DNA from: Thermoanaerobaculia bacterium
Lineage (GTDB): Bacteria; Acidobacteriota; Thermoanaerobaculia; Multivoradales; UBA5704
NCBI GenBank assembly: GCA_036376245.1
Contig: DASVAS010000072.1
Coordinates: 12,959 to 76,958, forward strand
DNA length: 64,000 nt
Direction: 5' to 3'
Below, piece after piece: positions 3,706-54,800 of this stretch. How positions within the stretch are numbered: position 1 is the stretch's first letter; each line of letters starts with the position of its first letter. The notes under the pieces were generated by a model, which was not told the origin of the DNA, searched no databases, and saw nothing but the letters and a program-made list of their open reading frames with translations. Both the position numbers and the translations under genes were made by a program.

Positions 3706-4551
3706 ATGCGGAACCTCGTCCTCTTCGCCGCCGGCCTGTTCCTCGCGCTGGCGGCCACCGCCCAGGATCTCCCCATCCCCCGCGAGAGCCCGCCGGCCAC
3801 GGTGCGCCAGGGCATCGGCATCAGCTCGGTCGAGATCGTCTACCACCGGCCCGCGGTCAAGGGACGGAAGATCTGGGGCGGCCTGGTCCCCTACGGTGAG
3901 GTCTGGCGGCTGGGAGCCAACGACGCCACCACGATCGAGATCAGCGACGCGATGAAGATCGCGGGGCACGACGTCCCGGCCGGCAAGTACGGCTTCTTCG
4001 CCATCCCCGGACCGGAGACCTGGACGCTGATCCTCAACAAGCGGCCGCAGCAGTGGGGGGCCTACTTCTACAAGGCCGAGGAGGACTTCCTGCGCTTCGA
4101 GGTCAAGCCCGAGGCCGGCCCGCCCACGGAGTGGATGACCTTCGACCTCTATCCCGAGGACCGCAACCGGCTCAGGCTCGGGTTCGCGTGGGAGAAGCTG
4201 CGCTTCTCGATCCCCATCGAGGCGGACGTGGACAGGATCGTCTGGGCCCGCTACGACGCCGCCCTCGCCGATCCCAAGGCGGGCTGGGACGCCTATCAGG
4301 CCGTCGCCCAGTACGCCCTCCAGCGCGAGCAGCGGCTGGACGAGGCCATGGTCTGGATCGACAAGTCCATCGCTCTCCAGGAGAGCTTCTGGAACTACGA
4401 GACCAAGGCGCGGCTCCTGCACAAGGCGGGGAAGACGAAGGAGGCCCTGCCGCTGCTGGAGAAGGCCCTGGCCCTCTCCCGCGGCAAGACGCCCAAGGGA
4501 TACCAGGACGGGCTGGAGGCTACGAAGAAGGAGTGGGAAGGAGGCAGGTAG
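3706..4551 (+). CDS. DUF2911 domain-containing secreted protein with C-terminal helical (TPR-like) tail
   Basis: Signal peptide MRNLVLFAAGLFLALAATAQD, GANDATTIE motif region, RBS caggagg 7 nt before the ATG, 281 aa. Confidence 0.65.
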   Translation: MRNLVLFAAGLFLALAATAQDLPIPRESPPATVRQGIGISSVEIVYHRPAVKGRKIWGGLVPYGEVWRLGANDATTIEISDAMKIAGHDVPAGKYGFFAIPGPETWTLILNKRPQQWGAYFYKAEEDFLRFEVKPEAGPPTEWMTFDLYPEDRNRLRLGFAWEKLRFSIPIEADVDRIVWARYDAALADPKAGWDAYQAVAQYALQREQRLDEAMVWIDKSIALQESFWNYETKARLLHKAGKTKEALPLLEKALALSRGKTPKGYQDGLEATKKEWEGGR

Positions 4552-4728
4552 CCGCAGCGCGGCAGAGCCGTCTCCGGTGGGCGCTTCAGAAGTAGTGCTA
4601 CTCTGGTACGGCTCCTGCTTCTTTTCCCTTTTGAGGCTGGCATGCCAGGCTCGACCCTGCTATCATTGTCGCAGTGCGGCATAGCCGGCGCCGGCGGGCC
4701 GCGCTCCTACTGCCCAAAGGGGAGAGAC

Positions 4729-6651
4729 ATGGCGAAGGAACCTGAACACGTCAGCGAATTGGAATCCAGGAAGGTCGCGGAGGCTTCGCGGGAAACCGAG
4801 TGGAAGCAGCCCAGCTTCCTGCGTGAGATGTTCCTCGGCAATTTCCGGCTGGACCTGGTCCATCCGTATCCGCTGCCGGCGGAGGAGCGGCCGGAATTCG
4901 CCGCTTTTTACAATGCCTTGAAGGAATTCCTGCGGGATCAGGTCGACCCGGTGGAGATCGACGCCACGGGCGAATACCCGGAGCATGTCGTGGACGGCCT
5001 GCGCAAGCTGGGCGCCTTCGGCATGAAGATCCCGAAGAAATACGGCGGCATGGGCTTCACCAACATGGAGTACCAGAAGGTCATGATGCTGATGGGCTCC
5101 ATCGACGGCAACCTGTCGGCCCTGCTGTCCGCCCACCAGTCGATCGGCGTCCCGCAGCCGCTCAAGATCTTCGGCTCCGACGCTCTCAAGAAGAAGTACC
5201 TGCCGCGCTGCGCCGCGGGTGAGATCTCGGCCTTCGCGCTCACCGAGACGCAGGTCGGCTCCGACCCCGCGCGCCTGCTGACCCGGGCCGAGAAGACCCC
5301 CGAGGGGGACTACGTCATCAACGGCGAGAAGCTCTGGTGCACCAACGGCACCATCGCCAAGCTGCTGGTGGTGATGGCGAGCGATCCCAAGACGAAGAAG
5401 ATCAGCGCTTTCGTGGTGGAGACGAGCTGGCCGGGCGTCAAGGTCGAGCACCGCTGCCACTTCATGGGCCTACGGGCGCTGGCCAACGCCGTGATCAGCT
5501 TCAAGAACGTGCGGGTGCCGGCCGAGAACCTGATCGGCGAGGAGGGCAAGGGCCTGAAGATCGCCCTCACCACCCTCAACGACGGCCGCCTGTCGATCCC
5601 CAACGGCTCGGTGGGCACGGCCAAGCTCTGCCTGGAGATCTGCCGCAAGTGGGCCGCCGAGCGCGTGCAGTGGGGCCGGCCGGTGGGCAAGCACGAGGCG
5701 ATCGCCCACAAGATCGCCGACATGGCCGCCACCACCTTCGCGATGGAGTCCATCGCCACCCTGGCGACCGAGATGACCGACCGCGGCGGCTACGACATCC
5801 GCCTGGAGGCCGCGGCCTGCAAGGAGTGGAACTCCTACCGCACCTGGGAGATCGTGGACAACACCATGCAGATCCGCGGCGGCCGCGGCTACGAGACCGA
5901 GCTTTCGCTGAAGGCCCGGGGCGAGGAGCCGATCGGCGTCGAGCGGATGATGCGCGACTACCGCATCAACAAGATCTTCGAGGGCTCGTCCGAGATCATG
6001 CACCTGTTCATGGCCCGCGAAGCCGTGGACAAGCACCTGCAGGTCGCGGGCGCGATGATCGATCCCGAGAAGAGCGTGGCCGAGAAGCTGGGCGAGCTGC
6101 CGAAGATGACCGCCTTCTACGCCTCCTGGTATCCGACCCGGTGGCTGGGCTGGGGCCAGTGGCCGCGCTACCAGGAGTTCGGCGAGCTGGCGGGGCACCT
6201 CAGGTTCGCGGAGCGGAACACCCGGCGCCTGTCGCGCCAGATCTTCCACGGCATGATCGTCCATCAGGCCAAGCTCCAGAACAAGCAGGCGTTCCTCTTC
6301 CGCCTGGTGGACATCGCCAACGAGCTGTTCGCCATCACGGCGTCGGTCGCGCGGGCGCACGCCATGCGGGAGGCCGGCCATCCCGACGCGGCCAACGCCG
6401 TCGAGCTGGCGGACCTCTTCTGCCGCAGCTCCCGCCGCCTGGTCCTCCGCCTCTTCCACGACCTGTGGGCCAACGACGACGTGCGGAAGTACAAGGTGGC
6501 CCTGCGGGTGCTGGACGGCAAGCACGCCTGGATCGAGAGCGGCATTCTCAATCTGGGCGCCCGCGCCGAGGCCCTGAAGCCGCAGTCGGTGGAGCCCGCG
6601 AAGCCCGATCCGGTGCCGGTCCCGAAGGTCCGCCCGGTCGGCACGCACTAA
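4729..6651 (+). CDS. acyl-CoA dehydrogenase family protein (long, ACAD9/10/11-like form)
   Basis: MAKEPEH start after RBS aaaggggagag; conserved ACAD blocks (FALTE..GSD, GEK.W.TNG, RGGRGYE, IFEGSSEI); the track's upstream Met at 4642 has no RBS. Confidence 0.8.
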   Translation: MAKEPEHVSELESRKVAEASRETEWKQPSFLREMFLGNFRLDLVHPYPLPAEERPEFAAFYNALKEFLRDQVDPVEIDATGEYPEHVVDGLRKLGAFGMKIPKKYGGMGFTNMEYQKVMMLMGSIDGNLSALLSAHQSIGVPQPLKIFGSDALKKKYLPRCAAGEISAFALTETQVGSDPARLLTRAEKTPEGDYVINGEKLWCTNGTIAKLLVVMASDPKTKKISAFVVETSWPGVKVEHRCHFMGLRALANAVISFKNVRVPAENLIGEEGKGLKIALTTLNDGRLSIPNGSVGTAKLCLEICRKWAAERVQWGRPVGKHEAIAHKIADMAATTFAMESIATLATEMTDRGGYDIRLEAAACKEWNSYRTWEIVDNTMQIRGGRGYETELSLKARGEEPIGVERMMRDYRINKIFEGSSEIMHLFMAREAVDKHLQVAGAMIDPEKSVAEKLGELPKMTAFYASWYPTRWLGWGQWPRYQEFGELAGHLRFAERNTRRLSRQIFHGMIVHQAKLQNKQAFLFRLVDIANELFAITASVARAHAMREAGHPDAANAVELADLFCRSSRRLVLRLFHDLWANDDVRKYKVALRVLDGKHAWIESGILNLGARAEALKPQSVEPAKPDPVPVPKVRPVGTH

Positions 6652-6652
6652 A

Positions 6653-6702
6653 GCCCCTCTCCCCTGGGAGAGGGGTTGGGGTGAGGTCTTCCTGGGGTAG
6701 GA
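6653..6702 (+). terminator. GC-rich palindrome (short derivative of the MITE-like family) 3' of the ACAD gene
   Basis: CCCCTCTCCCCTGGGAGAGGGG perfect stem followed by GGGGTGAGGTCTTCCTGGGG, which matches the right end of the ~190-bp elements at 16645, 38197, 59003 and 60843. Confidence 0.4.
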
Positions 6703-6709
6703 TCGCGCG

Positions 6710-7684
6710 GTGCGCGCGGTCCTGCCCCCTGCCGATTCCAACCATCCCGTCCCCAGAGTAGGGATCGTCCCCGACCCGGTTCCCGCGGTCGGGGAGGTCC
6801 TCGTCGCCGTGGAGGCCGCCGGCATCAACCACGCCGACGTGCTCCAGCTCCGCGGCCAGTACCCACCCCCGGCGGGCGAGAGCGACATCCCCGGCCTCGA
6901 ATGCTCCGGCGTAGTGCTGGAGTCGGAGAAGGGGAGCCCGTGGCAGCCTGGCGCGCGGGTGATGGCCTTGACCGGCGGCGGCGCCCACGCCACCCGCGCC
7001 GCCATCCCTATGGGGCAGCTCATGCCCCTGCCCGACAACCTCTCCTTCATCGAAGGCGCGGCCATCCCCGAGGCCGCCCTGACCGCCTGGACCAACCTGG
7101 TGGCCGAGGGCGGGCTGCAAGCCGGCGAGACGGTGTTGATCACAGGCGCCACCGGCGGCATGGGGAGCTTCGCCGCGCAGCTCGCCCGGGAGCTGGGCGC
7201 CCGCGTCCTCGCCGCGGGCCGGAGCTGGGAGCGGCTGGAGATGCTGCGCGGGCTGGGGATCGAGGAGGTCTGCCTGGAGGGGGCGAACCTGGCGCGTCAG
7301 GTGCGCGAGGCCACGGGCGGCCGCGGCGTGGACCTGGTCGTCGACTTCACGGCCGGTCCCGGGCTGGACGGCCATCTGGCGGCCCTGGCGGAGCGCGGCC
7401 GGCTGGTGGTGGTGGGCCTGGTGGCGGGCCGCAAGGCCGAGGTGGACCTCGGGCTGGTGATGCGGCGGCGCCTGCGGGTGATCGGCTCGGTGCTGCGGGC
7501 CCGTCCCCGCGAGGAGAAGGCGCGGCTGGTGGCGGACTTCGCCGCCTTCGCCCTGCCGCGCCTGCGCGAAGGCCGCCTCCGCCCGGTGGTGGACCGCGTC
7601 CTCCCCCTGGAACGGGCCGCCGAAGCCTACAAGGCCCTGGAGCGGGGCGGCGCCTTCGGCAAGATCATCCTATCGGCCGTTTGA
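6710..7684 (+). CDS. NADPH:quinone oxidoreductase (zinc-type MDR family)
   Basis: GTG start; GATGGMGSFAAQLA nucleotide-binding motif; 324 aa; its last 15 nt overlap the convergent VWA gene. Confidence 0.8.
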   Translation: MRAVLPPADSNHPVPRVGIVPDPVPAVGEVLVAVEAAGINHADVLQLRGQYPPPAGESDIPGLECSGVVLESEKGSPWQPGARVMALTGGGAHATRAAIPMGQLMPLPDNLSFIEGAAIPEAALTAWTNLVAEGGLQAGETVLITGATGGMGSFAAQLARELGARVLAAGRSWERLEMLRGLGIEEVCLEGANLARQVREATGGRGVDLVVDFTAGPGLDGHLAALAERGRLVVVGLVAGRKAEVDLGLVMRRRLRVIGSVLRARPREEKARLVADFAAFALPRLREGRLRPVVDRVLPLERAAEAYKALERGGAFGKIILSAV

Positions 7685-29875: not shown

Positions 29876-29936
29876 GGGCCCTCACCACCCCGGCCCTCCT
29901 CTCCCAGCCTCCGGGAGAGGAGGAAGAGGTTGGAAA

Positions 29937-30050
29937 AAAGGACCTAAAGGACATAAACGACCTAAAGGACCCAAAGGACAAAACAAGCGAGCTTCTCCGT
30001 CCTTGTCAGTCCTTTAGGTCCCTTGGGTCCTTTATGTCCTTTAGGTCCTT
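29937..30050. repeat. nonamer-built palindromic hairpin element, copy 3 (a short CCTCCTCTCCC..GGGAGAGGAGG palindrome lies just 5' of it)
   Basis: GGACCTAAA GGACATAAA CGACCTAAA GGACCCAAA GGACAAAAC followed by a loop and the inverted arm GTCCTTTAGGTCCCTTGGGTCCTTTATGTCCTTTAGGTCC; lies between convergent gene ends. 29889..29930 is a separate GC-rich palindrome. Confidence 0.7.
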
Positions 30051-30066
30051 CTGTCCTTTCCCCCTC

Positions 30067-34957: not shown

Positions 34958-35033
34958 TGGTGGGCCGTCAGAGACTCGAACTCTGGACCCGCGGATTAAA
35001 AGTCCGCTGCTCTACCAACTGAGCTAACGGCCC
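34958..35033 (-). tRNA. tRNA-Lys (anticodon TTT)
   Basis: GGGCCGTTAGCTCAGTTGGTAGAGCAGCGGACTTTTAATCCGCGGGTCCAGAGTTCGAGTCTCTGACGGCCCACCA. There is a 7-bp acceptor stem, a cloverleaf with anticodon loop CTTTTAA, a T-loop GTTCGAGTC, and an encoded CCA. Confidence 0.9.
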
Positions 35034-40153: not shown

Positions 40154-41125
40154 ATGGACGCCAAGAAGAAGAGAACGCTCCTCAAGAAGAGCATCGCCAA
40201 GGCCCTGACGTCCCAGGGGACCGTGGTCACCGGCGCCGTGTGCCTGGCGGCCTCGGCGGTCACCCTCAACCCGCTGCCCCTGATCCTCTGGGGCCTGGGG
40301 GCGACCGGCTGGGTGACGCTCGCCTCGACCGGCAACCGCTACATCCAGCAGATCGAGGAGGAGGAGCGGCGCGAGACGGAGCTCAAGGCGGAGCGGGACC
40401 GCGAGACGCTGCGCCAGAAGGTGGAGCAGATCCTGGGGGAGAACCCCATCTCCAACTGGATCCGGGCCGGGTTGATGCCGGATTACATGGCGGTCTACCG
40501 CCGGCTGGCCGAGGTCCGCGGCCGCGTCTCGCGGGTGCTCGCCGAGCGCAGCGACCTCGACACCCTCAGCAAGGCGGACATCCTCCAGCAGCTCGGCTAC
40601 ATGCTGACGGCCTACCTCAACTTCGTGCGCGAGCGGGTCTCCTATCTTCAGATCCTGGCCCACATCCGCCCCGGGGCGGACACGCCCACGTCCACGCCGC
40701 CGCCCCCGCCGCAGGAACGCAAGCGGGGGCTGCAGCAGGTGCGGCCGTTCACGCCCCCGGCCACGCCGCTGCCGAGCGTGGACAAGCGCATGGCCGACGT
40801 GGACGAGAAGATCCGGGTGCTTCAGGAGCTGGCGAAGAAGGAGCCCGCCACGGCGCGCACCCGCCAGTTCCACATCGGAATCCTCGAGAAGCAGCGCGAG
40901 CTGCTGATCGAGTGCCAGAAGCGCGACCAGTTGGTGGTCGCGCAACTGGGCGCGTTCTCGGACGTCTTCGAGGTCATCCTCGGGCGCGTGAGCGCTTCGC
41001 AGTTCAGCGCCACCGAGGTTTCGAGCTACATGAGCTCCGTGGTGGAGCAGGTGGTGGAGACCGAGCGTTTCGTGGACTCGCTGCGGCCCGCCATGGACCA
41101 ACTCATGGGCATGGAGCCGGCCTGA
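40154..41125 (+). CDS. hypothetical membrane/coiled-coil protein of the ABC cassette
   Basis: 323 aa with two predicted TM helices (VVTGAVCLAASAVTLNPLPLILWGLGATGWVTLA), a charged coiled coil (IEEEERRETELKAERDRETLRQKVEQ) and a Pro/Thr linker (TPTSTPPPPPQ); starts 1 nt after the ATPase stop. No family recognised. Confidence 0.5.
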   Translation: MDAKKKRTLLKKSIAKALTSQGTVVTGAVCLAASAVTLNPLPLILWGLGATGWVTLASTGNRYIQQIEEEERRETELKAERDRETLRQKVEQILGENPISNWIRAGLMPDYMAVYRRLAEVRGRVSRVLAERSDLDTLSKADILQQLGYMLTAYLNFVRERVSYLQILAHIRPGADTPTSTPPPPPQERKRGLQQVRPFTPPATPLPSVDKRMADVDEKIRVLQELAKKEPATARTRQFHIGILEKQRELLIECQKRDQLVVAQLGAFSDVFEVILGRVSASQFSATEVSSYMSSVVEQVVETERFVDSLRPAMDQLMGMEPA

Positions 41126-43040: not shown

Positions 43041-46000
43041 TCAGCATTCGTCCGGCACGCCGTTGCCGTCCGCGTCCGCGCTCACGCCCTCCACGATGTC
43101 CGTCAGGTCCGACTGGCTGTTGGCGTTGCAGTCGTTCGCCGGCCCCGTGTAGCGGAGGAGGAAGGCGTCGTAGTCGGCGCGGTCGACGTCGCCGTCCCCG
43201 TCCGCGTCGAACGTGTCGCGGCAGGCGTTCGGCGGCGTTTGGAAGGCCGGATCGCTCCCCGGACCGGTCCAGCAGGCCCGCAGCTCCAGGAAGTCGCTGA
43301 GACCCACCGCGCCGTCGCCGTCGGCGTCCCCCGGCGTGCTGGAGACCCGGACCTCCACGATGGTGGCGAGGCCGCTGTTGGCGGCGTGGACGATGGTCGA
43401 TCCGGCCTTGACGGCGGTGACCGTGCCGTTCGCGTCCACGGTGGCGATGGTGGGATCGTCGCTCCAGTACGTGGTGCCGGCCGCGGCGGCGCTGACGTCG
43501 CGCTCCACGCCGTCGTCGAAGGAGCCGGTCACCGTCGCCGAAGCGCTCGGCGTCGTGGCGGAGAGCAGCAGGGGCTGGGAGGACATGGCGAGCCCGGTGA
43601 GGGCGGCGGGGACGTCGACCCGCAGGGGCACGGACGCCGAAGCGATGCGGCCCTGGGCGTCCTCGGCGACGGCCACCAGCTCGATCCGGCCGGCGGCGTC
43701 GGTCGGCACGTCCACGACGTCGTCGAAGCTCGCCGCCTCGACGCCGGTGAAGCCGTGACCGTAGCGGAGGAAGATCCGGACGGGCGTGAAGCCCGCCGCG
43801 CCGGCCACGGTCACCGGCAGCGTCGAGCCGGCCGTCACGGTGGCCTCGGGGCTCGGCGTGGCGATCACGAGGCCGCCTTCAACGATCACCGGTTCCGTCT
43901 TCTCCGCGAGCAGGAGCTTCGGCTCCGCCTCCGGCGCTTCGGCGAGCAGCGCCGTCTGTGGAGTGCAAAGCGAGAGGGGAGAGATGGAGGGGATCGGCAG
44001 ACCCGCGGCGAAGGCCGGGTCGGCGACCGGCTTGTTGAGCAGGTCGATCGCGGCCCGGTTGTAATCCGCCGAGGAGGTGTTGGAAGTGTGCATCGCCTGG
44101 AACGGATCGGACGTGACGGGGCCCACCGCGGCGCCCGCCGGCAGACCCGCCCGCTGGCTGCACACGCCCACGATCACGTCGTAATCCGGCTCGGGCAGGA
44201 AGAGGTTGTCCATGAAATTCGCCGCGCCGCTCAGGGCCATCATCTGGATCAGGATGCCCGCCCAGTGCGTGAAAACAGGCGGCTGGTTCTGGACCCACTG
44301 CCGCCCGCCCTGGCCCACGAACGCGTGGACCGGCAGGCCGATCGGGGGCAGCGACTGGACGGCGGTGCCGCCGCGCCGGAGATCCTCCATCGCGCCCCCC
44401 GCCGCCCGCGGCTCGGAGAGGAGGATGAAGGCTTCGCGCAGCGCGGGCCGGGCGACGACGTAGTTGGCGATGGGCGAGCCGAGCTGCGGCGAATCGATGA
44501 TCACCAGCTTGTGGAGGGTGCCGGTGTAGAAGTTGGCCGGCTCGCGGTATTCATGGGCGCGGGCCACGTCCGCCGGCGTGCCCCGGAGCTGCGCGTAGAT
44601 GCGGCCGCCGGCGTAGATGCGGGACAGGATGCCGCCCATGCTGTGGCCGAAGACGTCGGCCTGGGTGACCGCGAACCCCTTCTTGCGGAACGCCTGGAAG
44701 GCGTTGTTCACGCCCCACCAGACCTGGCTCTGGTTTTCGAGGAAGCTTTTGCCGGCGTGCGGCTCGTAGTCGTGGGGATAGACGAAGAAGCGTCCGTCCC
44801 GTAGCAGGGGCCACTTCCAGCTCGCGCCGTCGCTCCAGACGCCGTGGACGAGGACCACGGGGGGCCGGACGAGGTCGACCTTGCGGGTCACGGTGAGAGA
44901 GGAGCCGCCGCCGGAGGGAGCGAAGACGGCCGTCAGGTCGAGCTGGCGCGGCTTGGACTGGCCGAGGTCGGCGTCGCCCGCCACGCCAGGACGCACGAAG
45001 TCGATCGGGGCGGTCAGCACGGCGAAGGCCCACCAGGCGCTCCCCACCTGGCGGGCGGCGACGGTCACCGGATTGGCGGTCGTGGCCGGCTGGCCCAGGA
45101 GGTCGGCGAGGCGGCCCGCCCGCGCCGGGTCGCGCGAGCCGCGGTCGTCGGCCAGGGTGAAGGTCACGGACCCCGCCCCCGGCGCGCGGAAGCGGAGGAT
45201 CACCGGCGTCACGCCGTCGGCGGCCAGGCCGCGCACCCGCGCTCCCATCGTCGCCAGCAACGCGGGATCGCGGCGGATGAACTGCGCCGGCTGCGAGCCG
45301 AGGGGCGTAGCGGAGTCGAGCAGCCGCGGCGCGTCTCCCGAGATGGGATCGACGATCTCCAGCCGCGAGACCGGCAGCGTGACGTTGCGCTCGGCCTGGC
45401 AGCCCTGGGGATGGTCGTAGCGCACCCGGACCACCACCACGCTTTCGAGCGGCAGGGTCGCGTCGGCCCGCACCCGCACCGGGCAGCGGGCGTTGCCGTC
45501 CGGATAGGTGGTGCAGGGGCCGGTGCGCTCGATCGTGGCGTTGCGGCTGGGGACCGTCGCGGTCAGGGAGCCGCCGGCGGGCGACGCGCTCACCAGCAGC
45601 TCGATCGTCTGGCCCGCCTGAAGCGCCGGCGGCGCCTCGACGCGCAGGATCGAAGCCGGTCCGCCGCTCGGGCAGACCGTTCCCTCCGCCGGCAGGCCTT
45701 CGAGCGGATTGCGGCAGGGGAAGTCTTCCTTCTGCTCCGGATCGACGCGGACGGTGGGCCAGAGCGTGTACTTGATGCCGAGCTCCGCCAGCGGCGTGCC
45801 GTCCGCGAGCGTGATCGAGCGCGGGTCCTCGGCGCAGAAGACCACGGAAGCGGAGCCTTCGCCGTAGGTCGGCGATCCCGAAGCGAGGGCCGACGCGCCG
45901 ACGCTGCCCTCGATGCGGACCTCCAGGCCGCTGCCGGTGAACGGCTGGATCTGGAGCGGCAGGACGGTGCTCGATTCGCTGCCGGTCTCCACGCCGGAGA

Positions 46001-47525
46001 AGAAGCCGTACCGGTTCGCCGCGCCGTTGACCACCTGGATGCTGCCGCTCGCCGAGGAATACTCGCCGATGTTGCGCGCCGGGCGCAGGGCGATGCTGGC
46101 GTTCGCGGCGCCGTTCGTCTGGCTGTTGACGGTGAACGCGGTCCCCTGGACCTGGAAATGAAAGCGGACGTCGAGCTGGGTCTGTCCCGGCAGCAGGTTG
46201 GCGACCACGGAGCCGTAATCGAAGATCACGTACGACGTGAACTTCGCCCCGGCGCTGGGCACGGAAATGCCGTCGTCCTGCTGGTGGGCCTGCGCCGAGG
46301 CCGCGTACGCCTCGATGGCCGATTCGCTGAGGCTGGTCTTACGCTTGATCCGGAAGTGGTCGATGATCAGCTCGGTGCTGGTCTTCGCCGGCTCGGGCAC
46401 GCAGAGCGGCTGGAAGCTCGCGGCGCACAGGCCGTCCTGCCAGGTGAGCATCTCCACCGGCTTGGCCAGGAACGCGTGCCGGACGCCGCCGTAGGTGCCG
46501 CTGCCCACGATGACGCCCTCGTCGCCGATCGAATGGGCGGCGTCGAGATGCCAGGGCTTGCAGTTGTCCGGATGGCCGTCGCGGCAGGTCGGGAGCATCA
46601 TCTCGTTCAGATCCCAGGCCTGGATGCCTTCCCACAGCACCGCCCGGGTCTCGCCGCCGCCGCCCGCGTAGCCGACGATGCGGCCGCTGGAGAGCTGGAG
46701 GTCGCGCGCCGCGGAATCGCCGCCCGCGGCCGGCAGCTCGGTCAGGCCGGTGTCCGACCGCCAGCGGAAGGCGCGGGCGTTCCCCGGCGCGCCGACCTGG
46801 CCGACGGTGGTGAGCACGCCGGACGAGCTGAACAGGCGATAGGCCACGCTGGGCTCGGTCCCGAGCGGATAGACCACCGCGTTCGTCGACCGCTTGGGAT
46901 ACCAGAGCGCGAACCGTCCCTGGTGCTGCCCGGCCGTCACCGGATCGGTCGTGGAGCCGGTGATGGCGAAGGCCGCGCTGGTCCCGGACACCGGCATCAC
47001 GGTCGGCGCGAACGACGGTATCAGCCAGTAGGCCGCGCGGCGCTCGCCGGAGACGGTGACCTCGCCGGCGACCTGGCCGACGGAGTCGATGCCCCAGGCG
47101 ACGCCGCTGGAGCTGCCGGTGGGGAGGCGGAAGAGCTGAGGCAGGATGCTGCCGTCGCTCTGCTTGGTCCACAGCGCGGGCCGGTCGTTCCCCGCCGCGT
47201 CGCGGGTGAGCCCCAGGGCCGTGACATCCCCCTTGAAATCGAAGACCTCGCTCAACACGTCGGACCCGACCGGACAGAACGCCCGCCGCACCCCCGTCCG
47301 GCTTTCGTAGAGGAATCCCGCGCGCGGCACGGACCCCGGGCAGATCGGCGTTTCGAGCGCGCCCGCCGTGACCCCCAGGCCGATGTTGCGCACCCGGTAG
47401 GCGTCGCCCGGTCCGAGGTCCGAGACCGAGTAGTATCGTGGGGGAGACGTGCTCTGCGCGTAGACGGCGGCGGAGCCGAGGAAAGCCAGGGCCAGGGACG
47501 CGAGGCGAAGGACGAAGCGGTCCAT
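43041..47525 (-). CDS. large (1494 aa) secreted multidomain protein: HAF-type repeats, alpha/beta-hydrolase (lipase-like GHSMGG), Ig-like Big_2 domain, dockerin-like Asp-rich C-terminus
   Basis: Signal peptide MDRFVLRLASLALAFLGSAAVYA; AWGIDSVGQVAGEV-type HAF repeats; VVLVHGVWSDGASW ... DVFGHSMGGILSRIY nucleophile elbow; SDDPTIATVDANGTVTAVKAGSTIV (Big_2); DADGDGAVGLSDF ... DADGDGDVDRADYDAF ... DADGNGVPDEC (dockerin/EF-hand-like). Confidence 0.7.
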   Translation of the reverse strand: MDRFVLRLASLALAFLGSAAVYAQSTSPPRYYSVSDLGPGDAYRVRNIGLGVTAGALETPICPGSVPRAGFLYESRTGVRRAFCPVGSDVLSEVFDFKGDVTALGLTRDAAGNDRPALWTKQSDGSILPQLFRLPTGSSSGVAWGIDSVGQVAGEVTVSGERRAAYWLIPSFAPTVMPVSGTSAAFAITGSTTDPVTAGQHQGRFALWYPKRSTNAVVYPLGTEPSVAYRLFSSSGVLTTVGQVGAPGNARAFRWRSDTGLTELPAAGGDSAARDLQLSSGRIVGYAGGGGETRAVLWEGIQAWDLNEMMLPTCRDGHPDNCKPWHLDAAHSIGDEGVIVGSGTYGGVRHAFLAKPVEMLTWQDGLCAASFQPLCVPEPAKTSTELIIDHFRIKRKTSLSESAIEAYAASAQAHQQDDGISVPSAGAKFTSYVIFDYGSVVANLLPGQTQLDVRFHFQVQGTAFTVNSQTNGAANASIALRPARNIGEYSSASGSIQVVNGAANRYGFFSGVETGSESSTVLPLQIQPFTGSGLEVRIEGSVGASALASGSPTYGEGSASVVFCAEDPRSITLADGTPLAELGIKYTLWPTVRVDPEQKEDFPCRNPLEGLPAEGTVCPSGGPASILRVEAPPALQAGQTIELLVSASPAGGSLTATVPSRNATIERTGPCTTYPDGNARCPVRVRADATLPLESVVVVRVRYDHPQGCQAERNVTLPVSRLEIVDPISGDAPRLLDSATPLGSQPAQFIRRDPALLATMGARVRGLAADGVTPVILRFRAPGAGSVTFTLADDRGSRDPARAGRLADLLGQPATTANPVTVAARQVGSAWWAFAVLTAPIDFVRPGVAGDADLGQSKPRQLDLTAVFAPSGGGSSLTVTRKVDLVRPPVVLVHGVWSDGASWKWPLLRDGRFFVYPHDYEPHAGKSFLENQSQVWWGVNNAFQAFRKKGFAVTQADVFGHSMGGILSRIYAGGRIYAQLRGTPADVARAHEYREPANFYTGTLHKLVIIDSPQLGSPIANYVVARPALREAFILLSEPRAAGGAMEDLRRGGTAVQSLPPIGLPVHAFVGQGGRQWVQNQPPVFTHWAGILIQMMALSGAANFMDNLFLPEPDYDVIVGVCSQRAGLPAGAAVGPVTSDPFQAMHTSNTSSADYNRAAIDLLNKPVADPAFAAGLPIPSISPLSLCTPQTALLAEAPEAEPKLLLAEKTEPVIVEGGLVIATPSPEATVTAGSTLPVTVAGAAGFTPVRIFLRYGHGFTGVEAASFDDVVDVPTDAAGRIELVAVAEDAQGRIASASVPLRVDVPAALTGLAMSSQPLLLSATTPSASATVTGSFDDGVERDVSAAAAGTTYWSDDPTIATVDANGTVTAVKAGSTIVHAANSGLATIVEVRVSSTPGDADGDGAVGLSDFLELRACWTGPGSDPAFQTPPNACRDTFDADGDGDVDRADYDAFLLRYTGPANDCNANSQSDLTDIVEGVSADADGNGVPDEC

Positions 47526-47599
47526 CGAAAACCTCCAGGCTGATGCGGCGGACTGTTTATCTTATTCTATCATAGGAATAAGTTGGCTGCCCGGCGAGC

Positions 47600-48060
47600 C
47601 TCCCGGGTCTTCAGACTTCCGGGGAGAGAAACGGAACGAGCCCCCCGGACGTCGCGGCATCAGGGTGGGACGCAAGACCGGCGGGGGAGACCGCGCTCCC
47701 TCGAGTCCGGAACGCTCTCCCCGACGCCCGGACCCTCTGGGCGAGCACCCGGAAGGCTCGTCCCCGCGCCCTGGACGTCCGTACCCGCCGCCGGAACGTT
47801 CTCCCCTGCGTCCGGAGGTCTCCACCAAAAACCCGGACGTCTTCAACAAGTAGGTGGAGGTCTCTACCTGTTGGGTGGAACGCTCTACCCACTGGAAAGA
47901 CGCTTCCGGCGAGTGGGTGGACGCCGCCACCCATTGGGTGGGCCGCTCCACCCAATGGGTGGAAGGCTCTACCTGTTCGGTAGAGCGCTCCAACGAGTGG
48001 GTGGCACCCTCTACCCACTGGTACGGACGATCCGGGAGCGCGAACGGACGTTCTCCCTTA
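47600..48060. repeat. repeat-dense non-coding region including a 24-bp dyad-repeat array (47851..48022)
   Basis: Direct repeats CCGGAACG(C/T)TCTCCCC(G/T)(A/G)CG(C/T)CCGGA at 47706 and 47790, with a third diverged copy at 48040; CCCGGACGTC..GGTGG at 47645 and 47831; six approximately 24-bp units GGTGGA.GCTCTACC(C/T)(A/G)(C/T)TGG, with CCACCCA(A/T)TGGGTGG cores that are perfect palindromes. Confidence 0.65.
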
Positions 48061-48163
48061 TGCTCTTCCTATCCGGGGCCGCCGAATGCACGCATTCCCG
48101 CTCCGTGGATATCGGCCACCCGGTAAATTGACCGCCATGCGACGATCCCCATATACTTCCTCC

Positions 48164-49051
48164 ATGGCCGAGCCCCTGCGCAACACGCCGGCCGACTGGG
48201 AGAGCGAACCGACCTCGTCTCCCGGCGCCGATCCCTTCCCCTACGGATGGCGGATCCGGCACGTCCGCCTGCCTAGCGGCGAAGTCGCAGAGCAGCAGAT
48301 CCCGCTGACGCCGGAGGACCTTCTCGACCCTCAACTGGGAGACGTCGTGGTCCAGAGCGTAGATCACTATTGGGAGGCGCATGACGTGGCGGGTCCCCTC
48401 CGGGATCACTATGCCTCGCGGGAGGACGTCCTGGTCGCCAGCGACGTGAAGCTGCTCTGGGGGATTCAGGATCTTAAGGAGCCGGCGCCGGACGTCGCGG
48501 TCATCTTCGGAATCCGCGACAAAAAGGCGGAGCGGGAAAGCTTCAATTGCGTCGCTGAGGGTACCCGTCCCAGCCTTGTCATCGAGGTGGTCTCCTCCAA
48601 GGACGCGGAGGTGCGCCGCAATGACTACGTGGACAAGGTCAGGATCTACGAGCAGGCGGGGGTCCCCGAGTACATCATCCTCGACCCGCCGTCGCGACTG
48701 ACGAAGAATCGCTTCCTGCTGACCGGCTATCGTCTGGAGGTCGGCGGGAAATACCAGCCGATCCAGCCCGACCCGAAAGGCTTCCTCCTCTCCAAAACCA
48801 CCAACCTCCTCTTCGGCGCGGCCGAGGATGGCCAGACGCTTCAGGTGATCGACGCGGCTACCGGGGAACGGCTGTTGACTTCTCTTGAGGTGAAAGAGGC
48901 TCAGCAACGGGAGGCAGAGGCCCGAAAGCAGGCGGAAGAGCGAGCCGCGCAGGAAACCGCTCGTCGAAAGGAAGCGGAGGAGCGGGCCGAAGCCGCCGAA
49001 GCCGAGACCGCCCGCCTCCGGGCCGAGTTGGAGCGATACCGGGGGCAGTGA
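48164..49051 (+). CDS. Uma2 family (DUF820) PD-(D/E)xK endonuclease-like protein with C-terminal coiled coil
   Basis: PDVAVIFG ... PSLVIEVVSSKD ... YEQAGVPEYIILDP core; Glu/Ala/Arg-rich tail ending AETARLRAELERYRGQ; start at MAEPLRN (the track start 48086 is upstream). Confidence 0.65.
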   Translation: MAEPLRNTPADWESEPTSSPGADPFPYGWRIRHVRLPSGEVAEQQIPLTPEDLLDPQLGDVVVQSVDHYWEAHDVAGPLRDHYASREDVLVASDVKLLWGIQDLKEPAPDVAVIFGIRDKKAERESFNCVAEGTRPSLVIEVVSSKDAEVRRNDYVDKVRIYEQAGVPEYIILDPPSRLTKNRFLLTGYRLEVGGKYQPIQPDPKGFLLSKTTNLLFGAAEDGQTLQVIDAATGERLLTSLEVKEAQQREAEARKQAEERAAQETARRKEAEERAEAAEAETARLRAELERYRGQ

Positions 49052-49884
49052 TTCCTCCGATGGCAGCGTCTCCTCCCCGTGTCGATCCTTTTCGATTTGG
49101 ATGGCGTTATCGCTACGTCCCTCAACCCAACGGCGAAGTCATTCAAGAGCAGATCCCGCTGACGCCGGCGGATCTTCTCGATCCTCAACTGGGAGATGAG
49201 ATACCGCAGACCACACAGCACTACCGGAAAGTCCATGACCTTCAGGATCAACTCCGGACTCAATTTCGTGGTCGAAAAGATGCTCTGGTCGTCTCCGACC
49301 TGAAGATGCTTTGGCGGATTCCAGGTCTCGCCGAGCCCGCGCCCGACGTCGCCGTCATCTTCGGGATTCAAGACAGGGAGACGGATCGGGACAGTTTCGA
49401 TTGCATCCTCGAGGGGACTCGTCCCAGCCTCATCATTGAGGTCGTTGACTCTAGAGATCCAGAATTACGGCGCCATGACTACGAGCGGAAGGTCACGATC
49501 TACGAAAAGGTGGAGATCCCCGAGTACATCATCCTCGACCCGCCAACGCCGTCTACGAAAGGCCGTTGCCTCCTGACCGGCTATCGTCTTGGCGCCAACC
49601 AGAAATATCGGCCCATCCAGCCGGACGCGCAGGGATTTCTCCTGTCGGAAACCACGCAACTCCGGTTCGGCGTGGCTGAAGACGGTCGTAGCTTTCAGGT
49701 GATCGAGGCTGTGGCAGGAAAGCCTCTGCTCACGCTGCCGCAGATGGACGAGGCTCGGAAGCAAGCGGAAGAGCGAGCCGCGCAGGAAAAGGAGCGGGCC
49801 GAAAGGGAAGTCGAGGCCCGGAAGGCCGCCGAAGCCGAGATTGCTCGCCTCCGGGCCGAGTTGGAGCGGGCTCGGCGGGGGTAG
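49048..49884 (+). CDS. Uma2 family (DUF820) endonuclease-like protein, tandem paralogue
   Basis: GTG start overlapping the preceding stop (GTGA); the same PDVAVIFG / PSLIIEVVDSRD / YEKVEIPEYIILDP blocks and coiled-coil tail EIARLRAELERARRG. Confidence 0.65.
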   Translation: MIPPMAASPPRVDPFRFGWRYRYVPQPNGEVIQEQIPLTPADLLDPQLGDEIPQTTQHYRKVHDLQDQLRTQFRGRKDALVVSDLKMLWRIPGLAEPAPDVAVIFGIQDRETDRDSFDCILEGTRPSLIIEVVDSRDPELRRHDYERKVTIYEKVEIPEYIILDPPTPSTKGRCLLTGYRLGANQKYRPIQPDAQGFLLSETTQLRFGVAEDGRSFQVIEAVAGKPLLTLPQMDEARKQAEERAAQEKERAEREVEARKAAEAEIARLRAELERARRG

Positions 49885-49891
49885 CAGGTCT

Positions 49892-52309
49892 TTAGGATTC
49901 CTGTTCGCGGAGGCGGGCGCGGATGGCTTCGACGTAGGCGGCGTCCTTTTCCGCATCCAGGTGGCCGATCTCTCGCCTGAAATCAACAAAGACCTGCATC
50001 AGGTCCGCGGCACGCTGGAGATCTCCTTCCTCCTCATACCCAAGTCCTAAATTCCAATTGGCATTGGCCTCTCCTATTCTGTCTCCGATCTCGCGAGCGA
50101 TGGCGAGGTGCTGTTCGTAAAATTCGATGGCGCGGTGGGGCTCGCCGAGATCTGCGTAGGCGATACCCAGGTTGCCGAGAGCGTTGGCTTCTCCGAGCCG
50201 ATCTCCGATCTCGCGAGCGATGGCGAGTTGCTGTTCGCAGATCTCAATGGCACGGTGCGGCTCTCCCAGATTTTTATACGCGACTCCCATGTTGCCGAGG
50301 GTGTGTTCTTCTCCACGCCGGTCTACAATCTCACGTGCAATGGCAAGGTCATCCTCGTAAAACTCAATCGCACGACGCGGATCTCCAAGAAGCGCATGGC
50401 AGTTACCCAGATTGCCAAGGGTTTGTCCCTCAGTGCGCCGATCAGCACTTTCGCGAGCAAGATCAAGTACCTGTTCGTAGAGTTCAATAGCTCGGAGAGG
50501 TTGGCCAAGGTATGTGTAAGCAAGACCAAGACTGCCGAGATGTCTCATTTCTGCGGTCCGCTCACCCAACCGCCGGGCTGCCTCAAGAGCAGCCTCTCTC
50601 CAGATAATTTGCTCTCTAGGATGGAAGCGAGTATACAAAATATAGGTGCCCTCGACAGGATAACCACTACAAAGATACGCTGCCTCTTCAGAGACCGCAG
50701 AGTGCTTTACTGCCCAAGCTTGACCAGCCTGGATATTGCGCCGCTCAGCATCGAACATCCTTAAGCCTACAAGGATCTGCTCGCCTCCCTCCTCAAAGAG
50801 ATTGTCGGCGCGGGCAAGAACTCCCAAATAATGCTTCGCATGCTTAACCCGAGCCTCTTCCTGTTCGTTCTTTTCAAACAATACAACAGCAAACTCCCGA
50901 GCCAGATCATGCAGCCGGAATCTCCTATCGTTCGAATCCCATTCGACAAGGCTGTACCGATTCAGATCGTCCAACTCCTTCTGAGCTGAATCCTCATCCA
51001 ATTCCCAGATCGCCGCTGCAGCCGCCAAATCGAACGTGTCAGGGAAGACGCCCAGCCACCGCCAGAGCCTCCGCTGTTCCTCGTCCAAAAGGTCATAGCT
51101 CGTATGGAGGGAAGCATCCACTCCATCCAGCCGTTCCTTGCCTTCCTTCAATCGGCGAATGTAATCAGCAGGGGAGAGGGTAGGCCGCTCAGCGAGGGCA
51201 CTCCCTGCCAGACGCAGGGCCAAGGGGAGATAGCCACAGAGTTGGGCAATCTCGTCGGCGTCCGCTCCGATCCTTTCGTCGATCCGGAGAAGCAGATCGC
51301 GTGCTTCCTTCTGGGACATCTCGTCTAGATCTTTCGGGACAAACCCCGGTAGGGTGAAGTGGAATCTTGACGTCACCAGCAGCAGTGAGCCCGCAGGAGG
51401 GATCAGCGGCTCTACCTGCGCCCGGCCCTCTCGGGATGCGTTGTCCATAAGTAGGATTGTCCGCTTGCCGTGGAGCACTGAGCGATAGAGCCCTTCCAAC
51501 TGCATCGGATCCTCAGGAAGTTGCACCTCTGGGTGAAAGGACCGGATTACGTGAGCCATCGCCTGAGCAGGCGTCAACGGCTGGAGATCAACTCCTTTGA
51601 GATCGAGATAGATCTGGGCGTCCGGATATAGAGGCGTCAGCTCCTCGGCGAGTTTCAGCGCGAGGGTGGTCTTTCCGACCCCGCCCATACCGCGGAATCC
51701 GAAGATGGCTCCGGCTCCACCCTGGGTCAGCTTCTCTTTGAGGGAAGCGAGCTCTTCCTGGCGTCCCGTGAAGTCGCGCGGAGGAGGAGGGAGTTGGTGC
51801 AGGGCTTGAAGCGGGGAAGAGATGCCTGGCGAGATCGCGCTGTCCCGAGGCTTGGTATCCGCCTTGGGTGTTTCCTGGGTGAAATCGAGGATCTCTTCGC
51901 AGATGCGGGTTAGTTCGGAGTTGAGCTTGCCCTTGAATCGCTCCAGCGGACGGCCGTCTTTGGGGCGGACCTGTAAAGGAGACAGCCAGGAGATCTTCTG
52001 CCAAGCGCAAGCTTCAGCGATGACAGGGATGAATCGAAGACCGTCCTTGGCCTGACGTTCGAGGAGATACGGGACCTCCTCGTTGAGGATGAAGTCCGAG
52101 CTGAGGGAGTTCGAGGTGACCAGGAGAACAGCGGCGTCAGCCCGGTCCATGGCCTCCCGGATCTTCGAATGCCACTGATCTCCAGGGCCGATCTGCTCGT
52201 CATGCCAGGGATCGAGGAGGACCTCCTTCTGGAGCACTCGGAGATGGCGGACGAGGTGGTCCTTCCAGCGACCATCTTTGTGGCTGTAGCTGATGAAGAC
52301 GTTGGGCAT
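49892..52309 (-). CDS. TIR / NB-ARC / TPR STAND NTPase (plant-NLR-like architecture)
   Basis: N-terminal TIR (VFISYSHKD ... AAVLLVTSNSLSS..(F/W)); NB-ARC with P-loop GMGGVGKTTLA, LLLVTSR, GLPL-type CGYLPLALRLAG and MHD-like FRLHDLA; at least eight C-terminal TPR units (GNLG.AY..LGEP.RAIE.YEQ.LAIAREIGDR.GE). Codon usage is visibly more A/T-rich than in neighbouring genes. Confidence 0.8.
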   Translation of the reverse strand: MPNVFISYSHKDGRWKDHLVRHLRVLQKEVLLDPWHDEQIGPGDQWHSKIREAMDRADAAVLLVTSNSLSSDFILNEEVPYLLERQAKDGLRFIPVIAEACAWQKISWLSPLQVRPKDGRPLERFKGKLNSELTRICEEILDFTQETPKADTKPRDSAISPGISSPLQALHQLPPPPRDFTGRQEELASLKEKLTQGGAGAIFGFRGMGGVGKTTLALKLAEELTPLYPDAQIYLDLKGVDLQPLTPAQAMAHVIRSFHPEVQLPEDPMQLEGLYRSVLHGKRTILLMDNASREGRAQVEPLIPPAGSLLLVTSRFHFTLPGFVPKDLDEMSQKEARDLLLRIDERIGADADEIAQLCGYLPLALRLAGSALAERPTLSPADYIRRLKEGKERLDGVDASLHTSYDLLDEEQRRLWRWLGVFPDTFDLAAAAAIWELDEDSAQKELDDLNRYSLVEWDSNDRRFRLHDLAREFAVVLFEKNEQEEARVKHAKHYLGVLARADNLFEEGGEQILVGLRMFDAERRNIQAGQAWAVKHSAVSEEAAYLCSGYPVEGTYILYTRFHPREQIIWREAALEAARRLGERTAEMRHLGSLGLAYTYLGQPLRAIELYEQVLDLARESADRRTEGQTLGNLGNCHALLGDPRRAIEFYEDDLAIAREIVDRRGEEHTLGNMGVAYKNLGEPHRAIEICEQQLAIAREIGDRLGEANALGNLGIAYADLGEPHRAIEFYEQHLAIAREIGDRIGEANANWNLGLGYEEEGDLQRAADLMQVFVDFRREIGHLDAEKDAAYVEAIRARLREQES

Positions 52310-52397
52310 TGAAGAGGCATTTTAGCGGGTTACCGCTGCTGATGTCCCGCATGCATATCCCAACGGTGTGTCCGCCCCGCAGGGGCACGGGCGTAAA

Positions 52398-52560
52398 GCC
52401 TGGCGCTTTAGCGCCAGGAATTAAGACCCCAATTTTTCTAGAGTCCCGAAGGGACGCAGGTATGTCTCCTGCGTCCCTTCGGGACTTTGGTGTGTGGGTA
52501 ATCGGGGGACCTGGCGTTTAAAACGCCAGGCTCTATACCCTTGCCCCTTCGGGGCAGGTC
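52398..52560. other. cluster of four strong hairpins (two ~80-bp modules) between dinB-family 3' end and the TIR-STAND 5' region
   Basis: CCTGGCGCTTTAGCGCCAGG; AGTCCCGAAGGGACGCAGG-tatgtctc-CCTGCGTCCCTTCGGGACT (19-bp perfect stem); CCTGGCGTTTAAAACGCCAGG; CCTTGCCCCTTCGGGGCAGG. Confidence 0.6.
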
Positions 52561-52655
52561 CCCCGCCCAACAAATTGGTTTGTGGCCGGCGGGACGCCGG
52601 CGGTCCCAGGGGGCGTGCTCCGGGGCGCAGAGGCGGCCCCGGAGCGCCCATGATC

Positions 52656-53176: not shown

Positions 53177-53731
53177 TCAGGGGTTGTCGAAGAGGGAAGG
53201 CTGGTCCCCCTCGGCGCCGGCGTAGAGGAGCCGGCCGCCGGGGAGGACGCGGGCGTTGGAATCGAGCTCGTGGGGATCGGCGCGGCCGGGGGCCAGGATG
53301 TGGAGGACTTCGACGCCCCGCGCCACCAGGGCGTCCGAGATCAGCCGCCGGTGGCAGCGCCAGGGAACCGCCTCGGCGCAGAGGATGGCCACGACTTCCC
53401 GGCCGGCGCGCTCCATCAGCCGCTCCAGGGCGGCGGCGAACGCGGGGGTCTCCATGTGGTCGGCGTAGCCCCGGAAGGCTTCGACCCTCCAGGCCGTGTG
53501 CGGAGAGCCGGGACGGACGGCGCGGCGGCCGCCAAGGTCCGGCTCGTGCATATAGTGAATGCCGGCCTCGGCCAGGGAGGCGGCCAGGGAGTCCCGGGAG
53601 AACTGCGGGTGCCGGCGCGACATGGGATACCGCCGGACGTCCACCAGGACCTGAACGCCATGCTCGCGCAGGAGGTCCAGGAGCTCCTCGATGGAGCGGG
53701 TGGAGTGGCCGAGGGTGAAGACGGGAGGCAT
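53177..53731 (-). CDS. DUF488 family protein
   Basis: MPPVFTLGHSTRS..EELLDLLREHGVQVLVDVRRYPMSRRHPQF ... LGG matches the DUF488 N-terminal signature; start at the internal ATG 53731. Confidence 0.7.
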   Translation of the reverse strand: MPPVFTLGHSTRSIEELLDLLREHGVQVLVDVRRYPMSRRHPQFSRDSLAASLAEAGIHYMHEPDLGGRRAVRPGSPHTAWRVEAFRGYADHMETPAFAAALERLMERAGREVVAILCAEAVPWRCHRRLISDALVARGVEVLHILAPGRADPHELDSNARVLPGGRLLYAGAEGDQPSLFDNP

Positions 53732-53819
53732 GGGGCTACTATATCCTTGCCCACCGGGCGGGCCGGAAGTGGAAGAAAACAAGCGGGATCAGGGTTTTTT
53801 CACCGGGGGAGAGTCCGGA

Positions 53820-54569: not shown

Positions 54570-54800
54570 CTCCCGGCCTTCCGGCCGGGCCCTCACTCCC
54601 CGGCCCTCTCTCCCGACCCCTCCCTCCCACCCACACCGGGAGAGAGGGAGAGGTTAGCCAAAAGAAGCCAGAAACAGACAGCCAAGGCCCCTCCGGTCTT
54701 TTTGCTTTTTTGACTAACTTCTCCTCCTCTCCCGGTGAGGGTGGGAGGGAGGGGTCGGGAGAGGAGGCCGGGTGGTGAGGGCCCGGCCGGAAGGCCGGGA
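54570..54800. repeat. ~230-bp GC-rich inverted-repeat element: ~75-bp arms (about 95% complementary) around an AT-richer 75-bp core
   Basis: Left arm CCCGGCCTTCCGGCCGGGCCCTCACTCCCCGGCCCTCTCTCCCGACCCCTCCCTCCCACCCACACCGGGAGAGAGG; the right arm is its near-exact reverse complement. The core contains GGCCCCTCCGGTCTTTTTGCTTTTTTG. It is related in motif content (CTCTCCCGG/CCGGGAGAG) to the MITE-like family. Confidence 0.65.

Follow-up and report, generated by a model that had tools for sequence, protein, structure and literature searches.

The DNA analyzed here, called the window below, is a 64,000-nucleotide (nt) stretch of contig DASVAS010000072.1 from Thermoanaerobaculia bacterium, and our subject is the STAND NTPase gene at positions 49892-52309. 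An earlier note on this DNA had described at this place an 805-amino-acid (aa) protein with a TIR N-terminus, an NB-ARC domain with P-loop, GLPL and MHD motifs, and at least eight tetratricopeptide repeats (TPRs). The open reading frame (ORF) was indeed found on the minus strand with an ATG start, and it encodes a full-length TIR/NB-ARC/TPR protein of 805 aa that is 100% identical to the NCBI metagenome-assembled genome (MAG) record P0001, 'MAG TPA: tetratricopeptide repeat protein [Thermoanaerobaculia bacterium]'. The gene, its domains and its motifs are listed with the evidence used to place them (pLDDT, predicted local distance difference test; NLR, nucleotide-binding leucine-rich repeat protein).

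49892..52309, minus strand: intact TIR-NB-ARC-TPR STAND NTPase gene (ORF, Pfam, structure model)
51869..52309, minus strand: TIR domain, aa 1-147 (TIR_2, PADLOC ThsB-type TIR, model pLDDT about 90)
52076-52078, minus strand: codon of the candidate catalytic glutamate E78 (invariance, alignment to TIR-SAVED E84)
51770..51868, minus strand: low-confidence linker, aa 148-180, ending in HQLPxPPxDFTGR (pLDDT, conservation)
50870..51769, minus strand: NB-ARC region with nucleotide-binding domain (NBD), helical domain and winged helix, aa 181-480 (AfsR and plant NLR matches, motifs)
51665-51691, minus strand: P-loop GMGGVGKTT (translation)
51437-51457, minus strand: Walker B ILLMDNA (translation)
51365-51385, minus strand: RNBS-B LLLVTSR (translation)
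51206-51238, minus strand: GLPL motif CGYLPLALRLA (translation)
50903-50917, minus strand: MHD motif RLHDL (translation)
49895..50869, minus strand: C-terminal helical/TPR sensor, aa 481-805 (structure model, 120-nt DNA periodicity)

In the Pfam search, TIR_2 matched residues 4-106 (E 1.5e-16; 61.4 bits against a cut-off of 28), which bears out the TIR N-terminus, and TPR_12 matched four stretches (E 5e-35). NB-ARC matched residues 184-291 (E 1.4e-8; 34.7 bits against a cut-off of 23.5), a match that takes in just the first 109 of the 248 profile positions, though it lies above the gathering score. The AlphaFold2 model of the protein, built with 47 homologs, had a mean pLDDT of 84.5, with values of about 90 in the TIR domain and above 94 in the TPRs. 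Foldseek matched the model to the archaeal STAND-TPR protein 6mfv, LGN-type TPRs, Apaf-1 and RPP1; the TIR and NB-ARC domains were aligned with RPP1 in one stretch by sequence (query 21-420) and were also aligned with it by Foldseek. Residue conservation was scored over 47 homologs of 54-73% identity, and the invariant positions given below refer to this set.

The TIR domain is modeled with a flavodoxin-like beta-alpha pattern. Its best PADLOC match was the ThsB model PDLC00420 (3e-25), which was stronger than its matches with TIR models of the effector type. All 47 homologs keep E78, whereas the neighboring residue 77 varies (T, E, K, Q). E78 was aligned by phmmer with the catalytic E84 of MkeTIR-SAVED, the E84Q variant of which is catalytically dead. 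Behind the TIR domain, linker residues 148-171 have a pLDDT below 50, and H171, Q172, D179, F180, G182 and R183 are invariant; the alignment with Streptomyces AfsR starts at the same HQLPxPPxDFTGR linker motif.

The closest solved relative of the protein's nucleotide-binding oligomerization domain (NOD) is AfsR (8k60; E 1.7e-45, query 171-484). Plant NLR structures, namely WAI3 (9h2l), ADR2, NRC4, ADR1 and the TIR-type NLR (TNL) RPP1, also matched this region. The PDB entry 9h2l, titled 'NB-ARC domain-containing protein', was considered as a bacterial relative and rejected, the entry being wheat WAI3. P-loop residues G207, G209, G210, G212 and K213, Walker B D289, and T313 and R315 of the RNBS-B/sensor-1 motif are invariant; P362, L363 and A364 of GLPL are invariant or nearly so. 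In the winged-helix MHD motif, L466 and H467 are invariant and D468 is kept at 90% or more. Judged by its sequence, the protein is a STAND NTPase of the AP-ATPase/NB-ARC clade, with P-loop, Walker B Asp, RNBS-B, GLPL and MHD all in place; translation, the Pfam match, the AfsR and NLR matches and conservation in the homologs thus agree on the three motifs described before. The same motif set had been called plant-NLR-like. The motifs are all present, but they are general AP-ATPase/NB-ARC features, and since AfsR shares them almost word for word, they reflect the AP-ATPase clade rather than a specifically plant-like state.

Past residue 480, the model has 16 helices forming eight helical hairpins. 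The count of at least eight TPRs stands for the hairpins, while the regular 40-residue TPR units number six (564-804), the hairpins at 480-561 being irregular. The units have the consensus.P.RAIe..E..L..AREigdR..E...lgnlG..y..lG, and their counterpart in the DNA is a 120-nt periodicity at 50061-50540. The sensor matched the LGN/Pins TPRs with an E value of 1e-51.

Divergent alleles and absence at the DinB-adjacent site

We compared the window with related genomes, whose loci are numbered L001 onward; the contig index had no exact match to the window protein or P0001, so the context was read from scans of related loci. The closest relative, an Acidobacteriota MAG (L001, MFD03066.bin.2.238; 514-kb contig), is collinear with the window. 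Nucleotide identity between the two is 85-97% in both flanks and 56-79% over the STAND gene, and the drop coincides with the gene ends. The synonymous divergence (dS) is 0.06-0.20 in five flanking genes and 1.1-1.75 in the TIR-STAND gene, the ratio of nonsynonymous to synonymous divergence (dN/dS) of the latter being about 0.2 for each domain, with 0.06 for the NBD. Since the flanks and the gene differ so widely in dS while dN/dS stays at about 0.2, the difference arose by allele replacement and not by fast divergence in place. In-place positive selection was ruled out on the same grounds, dS being 6-10 times the flank value. These values indicate that the window and L001 carry anciently diverged, selectively maintained alleles brought about by an ancient allele replacement.

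In the same place next to DinB, a third relative (L098; 7.05-Mb contig, DegV 74% identical) carries an allele of 884 aa with only 55% identity. The STAND gene is absent in four other relatives (L004, L005, L007 and L008), which keep the DinB-DUF488-EEP-DegV region (DUF488 without a match in L007). The presence/absence polymorphism that had been expected among related Thermoanaerobaculia was thus found, with a divergent allele in L001, a more distant one in L098 and no gene in the four others. Alleles on unrelated contigs (P0027, 73%; P0003, 67%) resemble the window allele more closely than the syntenic alleles do.

A clean 'empty site' was also looked for and none was found. Since an ABC transporter in L004 and L098 stands in for the OmpA-domain protein, the 1494-aa protein and Uma2, the whole interval from a 323-aa anchor gene (40154-41125) to DinB is variable, rather than the site of a single insertion. 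No flanking direct repeats or att-like sites were found around the block, chance-length matches alone being present, and no integrase or transposase was found among the ORFs scanned against Pfam from 38.6 to 57.9 kb. A tRNA gene (34961-35033, minus strand; Rfam 73.8 bits) lies about 8 kb to the left of the variable interval; no integrase was found among the ORFs scanned against Pfam, which were those from 38.6 kb rightward.

The composition of the STAND gene is foreign. Its GC content is 0.574 and that of its third codon positions (GC3) 0.625, against a GC3 of 0.85-0.97 in seven surrounding genes, in agreement with the A/T-richer codon usage noticed earlier; the two adjacent Uma2 genes have GC3 values of 0.776 (Uma2a) and 0.656 (Uma2b). 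Low GC as a trait intrinsic to the family was ruled out, because the difference between gene and flank GC averages +0.003 over 40 further loci of the family that have 6 kb of flank or more.

Family, effector heads and known systems

The STAND protein has more than 4000 database homologs. The top 120 are 41-73% identical, and the majority have the TIR_2, NB-ARC and TPR layout. Heads and neighbors were surveyed in 82 family loci from genomes and metagenomes. On the same NOD-TPR chassis we found TIR in 13 loci, Metallophos (calcineurin-like phosphoesterase) in 8, DUF4062 in 5, Mrr in 2, and pYEATS (L025) and alpha/beta-hydrolase in one each; HNH and Mrr heads are also present among the database homologs. 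The head-swapped relatives (L025, L029-L097) are 44-65% identical over NOD-TPR. Many N-termini of these metagenome relatives, 45-170 aa long, have no Pfam match and may be uncharacterized effector or adaptor domains. Protein lengths in the family cluster at about 764, 803, 843, 880 and 915 aa, a step of one 40-aa TPR unit.

Such interchangeable effector heads are typical of defense STANDs. DUF4062 was recently reported to be a TIR-like NADase, and NAD+ depletion is regarded as the effector function of TIRs in Avs/STAND proteins (bioRxiv 10.64898/2025.12.03.692087). Of 589 prokaryotic STAND clades, Lee et al. (2026; PMC13581612) class 198 as defense-associated; according to the same paper, phage proteins are sensed by TPR-STANDs. 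As regards their effector and genomic-context criteria for a broad antiviral STAND, the window protein has a TIR head, and Mrr, DUF4062, HNH and Metallophos occur on its chassis; the context is weak, the neighbors being mostly housekeeping genes.

Among 98 ORFs lying no more than 2 kb from ten further TIR-type members, a Pfam census revealed no recurrent partner family, and an HMM (hidden Markov model) scan of the 82 loci together with this census ruled out Uma2 as a conserved partner. Since there is no conserved partner gene, the STAND gene is standalone. Toxin-antitoxin modules (HepT/MNT, VapB, AbiEii, PIN) occur occasionally near family members.

The antiviral AVAST/Avs families of STAND proteins, reportedly described by Gao et al. 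in 2020/2022, offer one comparison. The window protein resembles them in uniting an N-terminal effector, a STAND NTPase and a C-terminal TPR-like sensor in one polypeptide; TIR, Mrr, HNH and other effector heads can replace one another, obligatory partners are lacking, and the distribution is patchy and horizontally mobile. It differs in that its NTPase is of the AfsR-like AP-ATPase/NB-ARC clade, which no Avs model of PADLOC 2.0 recognizes, and in its sensor, a short regular array of 40-aa TPRs of about 325 aa against sensors of at least 400 aa in PMC13581612.

The order of domains is identical to that of the plant TNPs, the TIR-NB-ARC-TPR proteins defined by Johanndrees et al. (2022; PMC9806590), and P-loop, RNBS-B, GLPL and MHD motifs are shared with TNPs and TNLs, the TIR and NB-ARC domains being collinear with those of RPP1 (7crc). 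In contrast to the plant proteins, the window TIR is of the bacterial TIR_2/ThsB type, its conserved Glu is shifted by one residue relative to the plant SxWCxxEL motif, its Walker B is D-N rather than D-D, and there is no leucine-rich repeat. Bacterial and fungal TIR-NB-TPR proteins were noted in the same paper, which confines the cross-kingdom similarity to the NB domain and so leaves out TIR and TPR. The bacterial conflict systems listed by Kaur et al. (2020; PMC7159879) include TIR-AP-ATPase-TPR proteins, with such a gene attached to FxSxx peptide systems. The architecture is thus already described and the window gene belongs to a known, very large family; its novelty had been overstated.

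With AfsR (a SARP-NB-ARC-TPR protein; 8k60/8jke) the window protein shares the HQLP..DFTGR-type linker, GxGGVGKTTLA, LLxDNA, LVTxR, GxLPLAxRxA and RxHDL, and TPRs follow the NOD in both. However, AfsR is a transcription activator with an N-terminal SARP DNA-binding domain where the window protein has a TIR, and the window protein scores 234 against a cut-off of 1430 with the AfsR model NF053617, the match being confined to the NOD region. The FxSxx-COOH system protein (NF040586; PMC7159879) has the same bacterial TIR, AP-ATPase and TPR architecture, but the score is 114.5 against a cut-off of 300, and there are no vWA-MoxR, radical-SAM or FxSxx peptide neighbors. The TIR resembles Thoeris in that its best defense-HMM match is ThsB (PDLC00420); it differs in being fused to its own STAND sensor instead of being a free-standing signal generator, and no SIR2/SLOG, Macro or other ThsA-type effector was found within the window locus.

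Neighboring genes, repeats and palindromes

The features beside the STAND gene are as follows.

48086..49051, plus strand: Uma2a, Uma2-family putative nuclease with a C-terminal coiled coil (PF05685, E 5.7e-15)
49048..49884, plus strand: Uma2b, tandem paralog of Uma2a (PF05685, E 1.6e-14)
52365..52565, no strand assigned: nested palindrome of 201 nt in the intergenic region between DinB and TIR-STAND (inverted repeats, fold)

Both neighbors are thus Uma2 genes, as had been stated. The start of Uma2b overlaps Uma2a by 4 nt, and Uma2b is convergent with the STAND gene, with 7 nt between the stop codons. The two proteins are 60% identical (dS 0.92) and have none of the known signal-binding domains SLOG, Macro, SAVED and CARF in Pfam; Uma2a matches the PADLOC candidate family PDC-S03. 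Both proteins are unusually long (278-321 aa), with an Ala/Glu/Arg-rich coiled coil as the tail; a Uma2 protein at L021 (94-1143) has the same tail, and one at L016 (184 aa) is without it. L001 has a single Uma2 gene (4415-5167) that joins Uma2a's 5' part to the 3' part of Uma2b. The tandem pair of the window and the chimera of L001 point to an unequal-recombination polymorphism of about 879 nt. The dS of Uma2 between the window and L001 (0.39-0.72) lies between the flank and STAND values.

The DinB/TIR-STAND spacer is 346 nt long, and the fold of its 201-nt palindrome has an energy of -131.4 kcal/mol (z -13). The palindrome holds two inverted matches to the Rfam model Acido-Lenti-1, at 52373-52418 (minus, 31.4 bits) and 52510-52556 (plus, 27.1 bits), both under the gathering score of 37, and a perfect 19-bp hairpin (52442-52486) sits between them. 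At least about 115 nt of the palindrome are missing in L001, and no second copy was found in the sequences compared. The palindrome is probably a terminator or insulator that shields the STAND gene from DinB read-through. A hairpin-repeat region at 47526-48085, in the intergenic stretch from which the 1494-aa gene and Uma2a diverge, contains arrays of units of about 21 nt such as TGGGTGG-N5-CCACCCA, each of which forms a small hairpin (Tandem Repeats Finder arrays at 47692-47806 and 47914-47973). The region is 78-87% conserved in L001, had no Rfam match, and may be a regulatory or binding-site array.

Repeats and hairpins bracketing the gene had been reported, and the palindrome and the repeat region do lie on its two sides. 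They are not insertion boundaries, however. Other long, near-perfect intergenic palindromes occur in the window at 54584-54787, 29931-30056 and 3538-3621. The first of these separates the EEP and DegV-like genes and is conserved in L001 and, in part, in L004, which suggests that intergenic hairpin elements form a family in this lineage. Since similar palindromes recur elsewhere in the window, they are a genome-wide feature and not island boundaries. Matches of Rfam plant and animal microRNA models on the long palindromes, on both strands, were rejected as spurious.

Three further genes were noted around the site. A predicted secreted protein of 1494 aa (43041-47525, minus strand), with Big_2 and dockerin-like domains plus a lipase-type motif, GHSMGG, is present just in the window and L001 (84% aa identity). 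The DUF488 protein (53177-53782, minus strand) matches the PADLOC candidate defense family PDC-M45B (E 1.5e-35) and accompanies DinB, EEP and DegV in six of seven Thermoanaerobaculia-type relatives for which this region could be inspected (L007 has no match), both in those with the STAND gene and in those without it. As listed, the EEP (Exo_endo_phos) ORF runs about 90 nt into the 5' end of the opposite-strand DUF488 gene (53691-53782); since homologs align from EEP residues 21-44 onward, EEP probably starts downstream of 53691.

Proposed function and alternative explanations

We propose, with a probability of roughly 0.65, that the gene encodes a standalone, single-polypeptide NLR-like sensor in which the TPRs bind an invader protein, the NB-ARC oligomerizes and the TIR depletes NAD+, leading to abortive infection. 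At rest, the TPR superhelix and an ADP-bound NB-ARC (MHD His467) would hold the protein monomeric. An invader-derived ligand, most likely a phage protein, would bind the TPR surface and release autoinhibition; the NB-ARC would then bind ATP and oligomerize, and the N-terminal TIRs, brought together, would form composite NADase sites around Glu78. The resulting NAD+ hydrolysis would arrest or kill the infected cell. The ligand, oligomerization, NADase chemistry and phage phenotype are proposed by analogy with Avs and plant TNLs. The features computed here are the architecture, the intact invariant motifs, purifying selection, head swapping, TPR copy-number variation, foreign composition, and allele replacement or absence. 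Since related genomes hold very different versions of the gene, or none, at the same spot, the protein is probably an anti-phage suicide switch, and the defense-type role suggested earlier stays the best reading of the sequence in view of head swapping, TPR variation and locus polymorphism.

Several observations weigh against this proposal. The plant TIRs, in the phmmer alignments, place the variable E77 and not E78 in the catalytic column, so that a one-residue register ambiguity for the catalytic Glu remains; as far as the sequence goes, a Glu is at the TIR catalytic position in either register. The Walker B motif is D-N, with N290 replacing the second acidic residue in 46 of the 47 sequences. 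The D-N form is common to AfsR, whereas Apaf-1 and plant NLRs have the second acidic residue, and without it ATP turnover may differ. The PADLOC search that the earlier note had called for gave matches of TIR models (ThsB, SAVED-TIR and others) and generic TPR models, but none of the Avs/STAND models in PADLOC-DB 2.0 recognized the NOD at E <= 0.01. Most family members lie amid housekeeping genes and not in recognizable defense islands, the nearest solved or NCBIfam NOD-TPR relatives are non-immune (the AfsR regulator, the HaaT protein of ribosomally synthesized and post-translationally modified peptide (RiPP) systems, and the FxSxx protein), and the literature searched held no experimentally tested bacterial TIR-NB-ARC-TPR protein of this type. 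The L001 allele (5178-7594) is also split into ORFs of 302 aa and 506 aa by a frameshift near 6700.

The Uma2 genes raise the alternative that the TIR makes a nucleotide signal (a cyclic ADP-ribose isomer or similar, as in Thoeris) and that Uma2 is the downstream effector. The best PADLOC match of the TIR to the signal-producing ThsB model, the PDC-S03 match and the Uma2 dS above flank level fit this idea. Uma2 also adjoins a TIR-type member in three independent settings: the window with L001, and L016 and L021, the latter being the 2 of 82 family loci with adjacency besides the window and L001 (custom Uma2 HMM on six-frame ORFs). Since the family loci, about 870 kb in all, yielded no further Uma2-like ORF, this adjacency exceeds chance. 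However, most TIR-type loci are without Uma2, which was found once among the 98 ORFs of the census (1 of 10 members newly scanned) and not in five other annotated contexts (L017, L098-L101), and L098 retains the STAND gene at the same site without it. The Uma2 genes of L016 and L021 are of different subtypes and have no DNA homology, though their STANDs are 77% identical; they lie upstream on the same strand as the STAND gene, so that orientation differs among the loci, the window pair being convergent. The lack of signal-binding domains in Uma2a and Uma2b also speaks against a receiver of such a signal. We consider signaling through Uma2 improbable, and the proposal that the two genes are partners is not supported; the adjacency is neither conserved nor operonic, and we read it as co-localization of island-type genes. 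A related idea, to which we give just as little credence, is that Uma2 nucleases are a recurrent accessory of one TIR-NB-ARC-TPR sub-clade, a second effector arm or co-sensor in an undescribed two-gene system. If that were true, the Uma2 duplication and recombination between the window and L001 would belong to one diversification process together with the replacement of the STAND allele.

It is also unlikely that the protein is a non-immune STAND, that is, an AfsR/MalT-like switch or an accessory of a RiPP/FxSxx peptide system in which the TIR is an interaction or regulatory module. The similarity of the NOD to AfsR, the occurrence of a TIR-AP-ATPase-TPR gene with FxSxx systems and the housekeeping surroundings of many family members agree with such a role, as does the identity of the best NCBIfam matches (HaaT, 241 bits; AfsR, 234; FxSxx-COOH TPR, 114). 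These scores are far under the curated cut-offs, however (1125, 1430 and 300), no SARP DNA-binding domain and no nearby radical-SAM, peptidase or precursor-peptide genes were found, and the same chassis bears nuclease and NADase-type heads. The extreme allelic divergence and presence/absence at one locus would be unexpected for a regulator. A functionally decaying, horizontally acquired remnant, no longer active, would fit the unameliorated composition, the absence of the gene from several relatives and the split L001 allele. But the latter may be a true pseudogene or else a mistake in the assembly of that MAG, the window ORF is complete and its catalytic and switch residues are all intact, and dN/dS is low in every domain, which makes decay very improbable.

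If the standalone NLR-like sensor is the correct reading, the gene would add a further NLR-like sensor for abortive infection in bacteria, one of the NB-ARC clade from which plant NLRs arose, in the poorly studied phylum Acidobacteriota. No new kind of system is revealed; among the new results, allele replacement together with presence/absence polymorphism at a single site is the most useful. The DinB-adjacent locus is a clean natural example, with an intact gene here and anciently diverged alleles or nothing in relatives, and its polymorphism resembles that of plant R-gene loci. It could be used for studying the exchange of sensor alleles and for finding the phage ligand of a compact TPR sensor built of 40-aa units.

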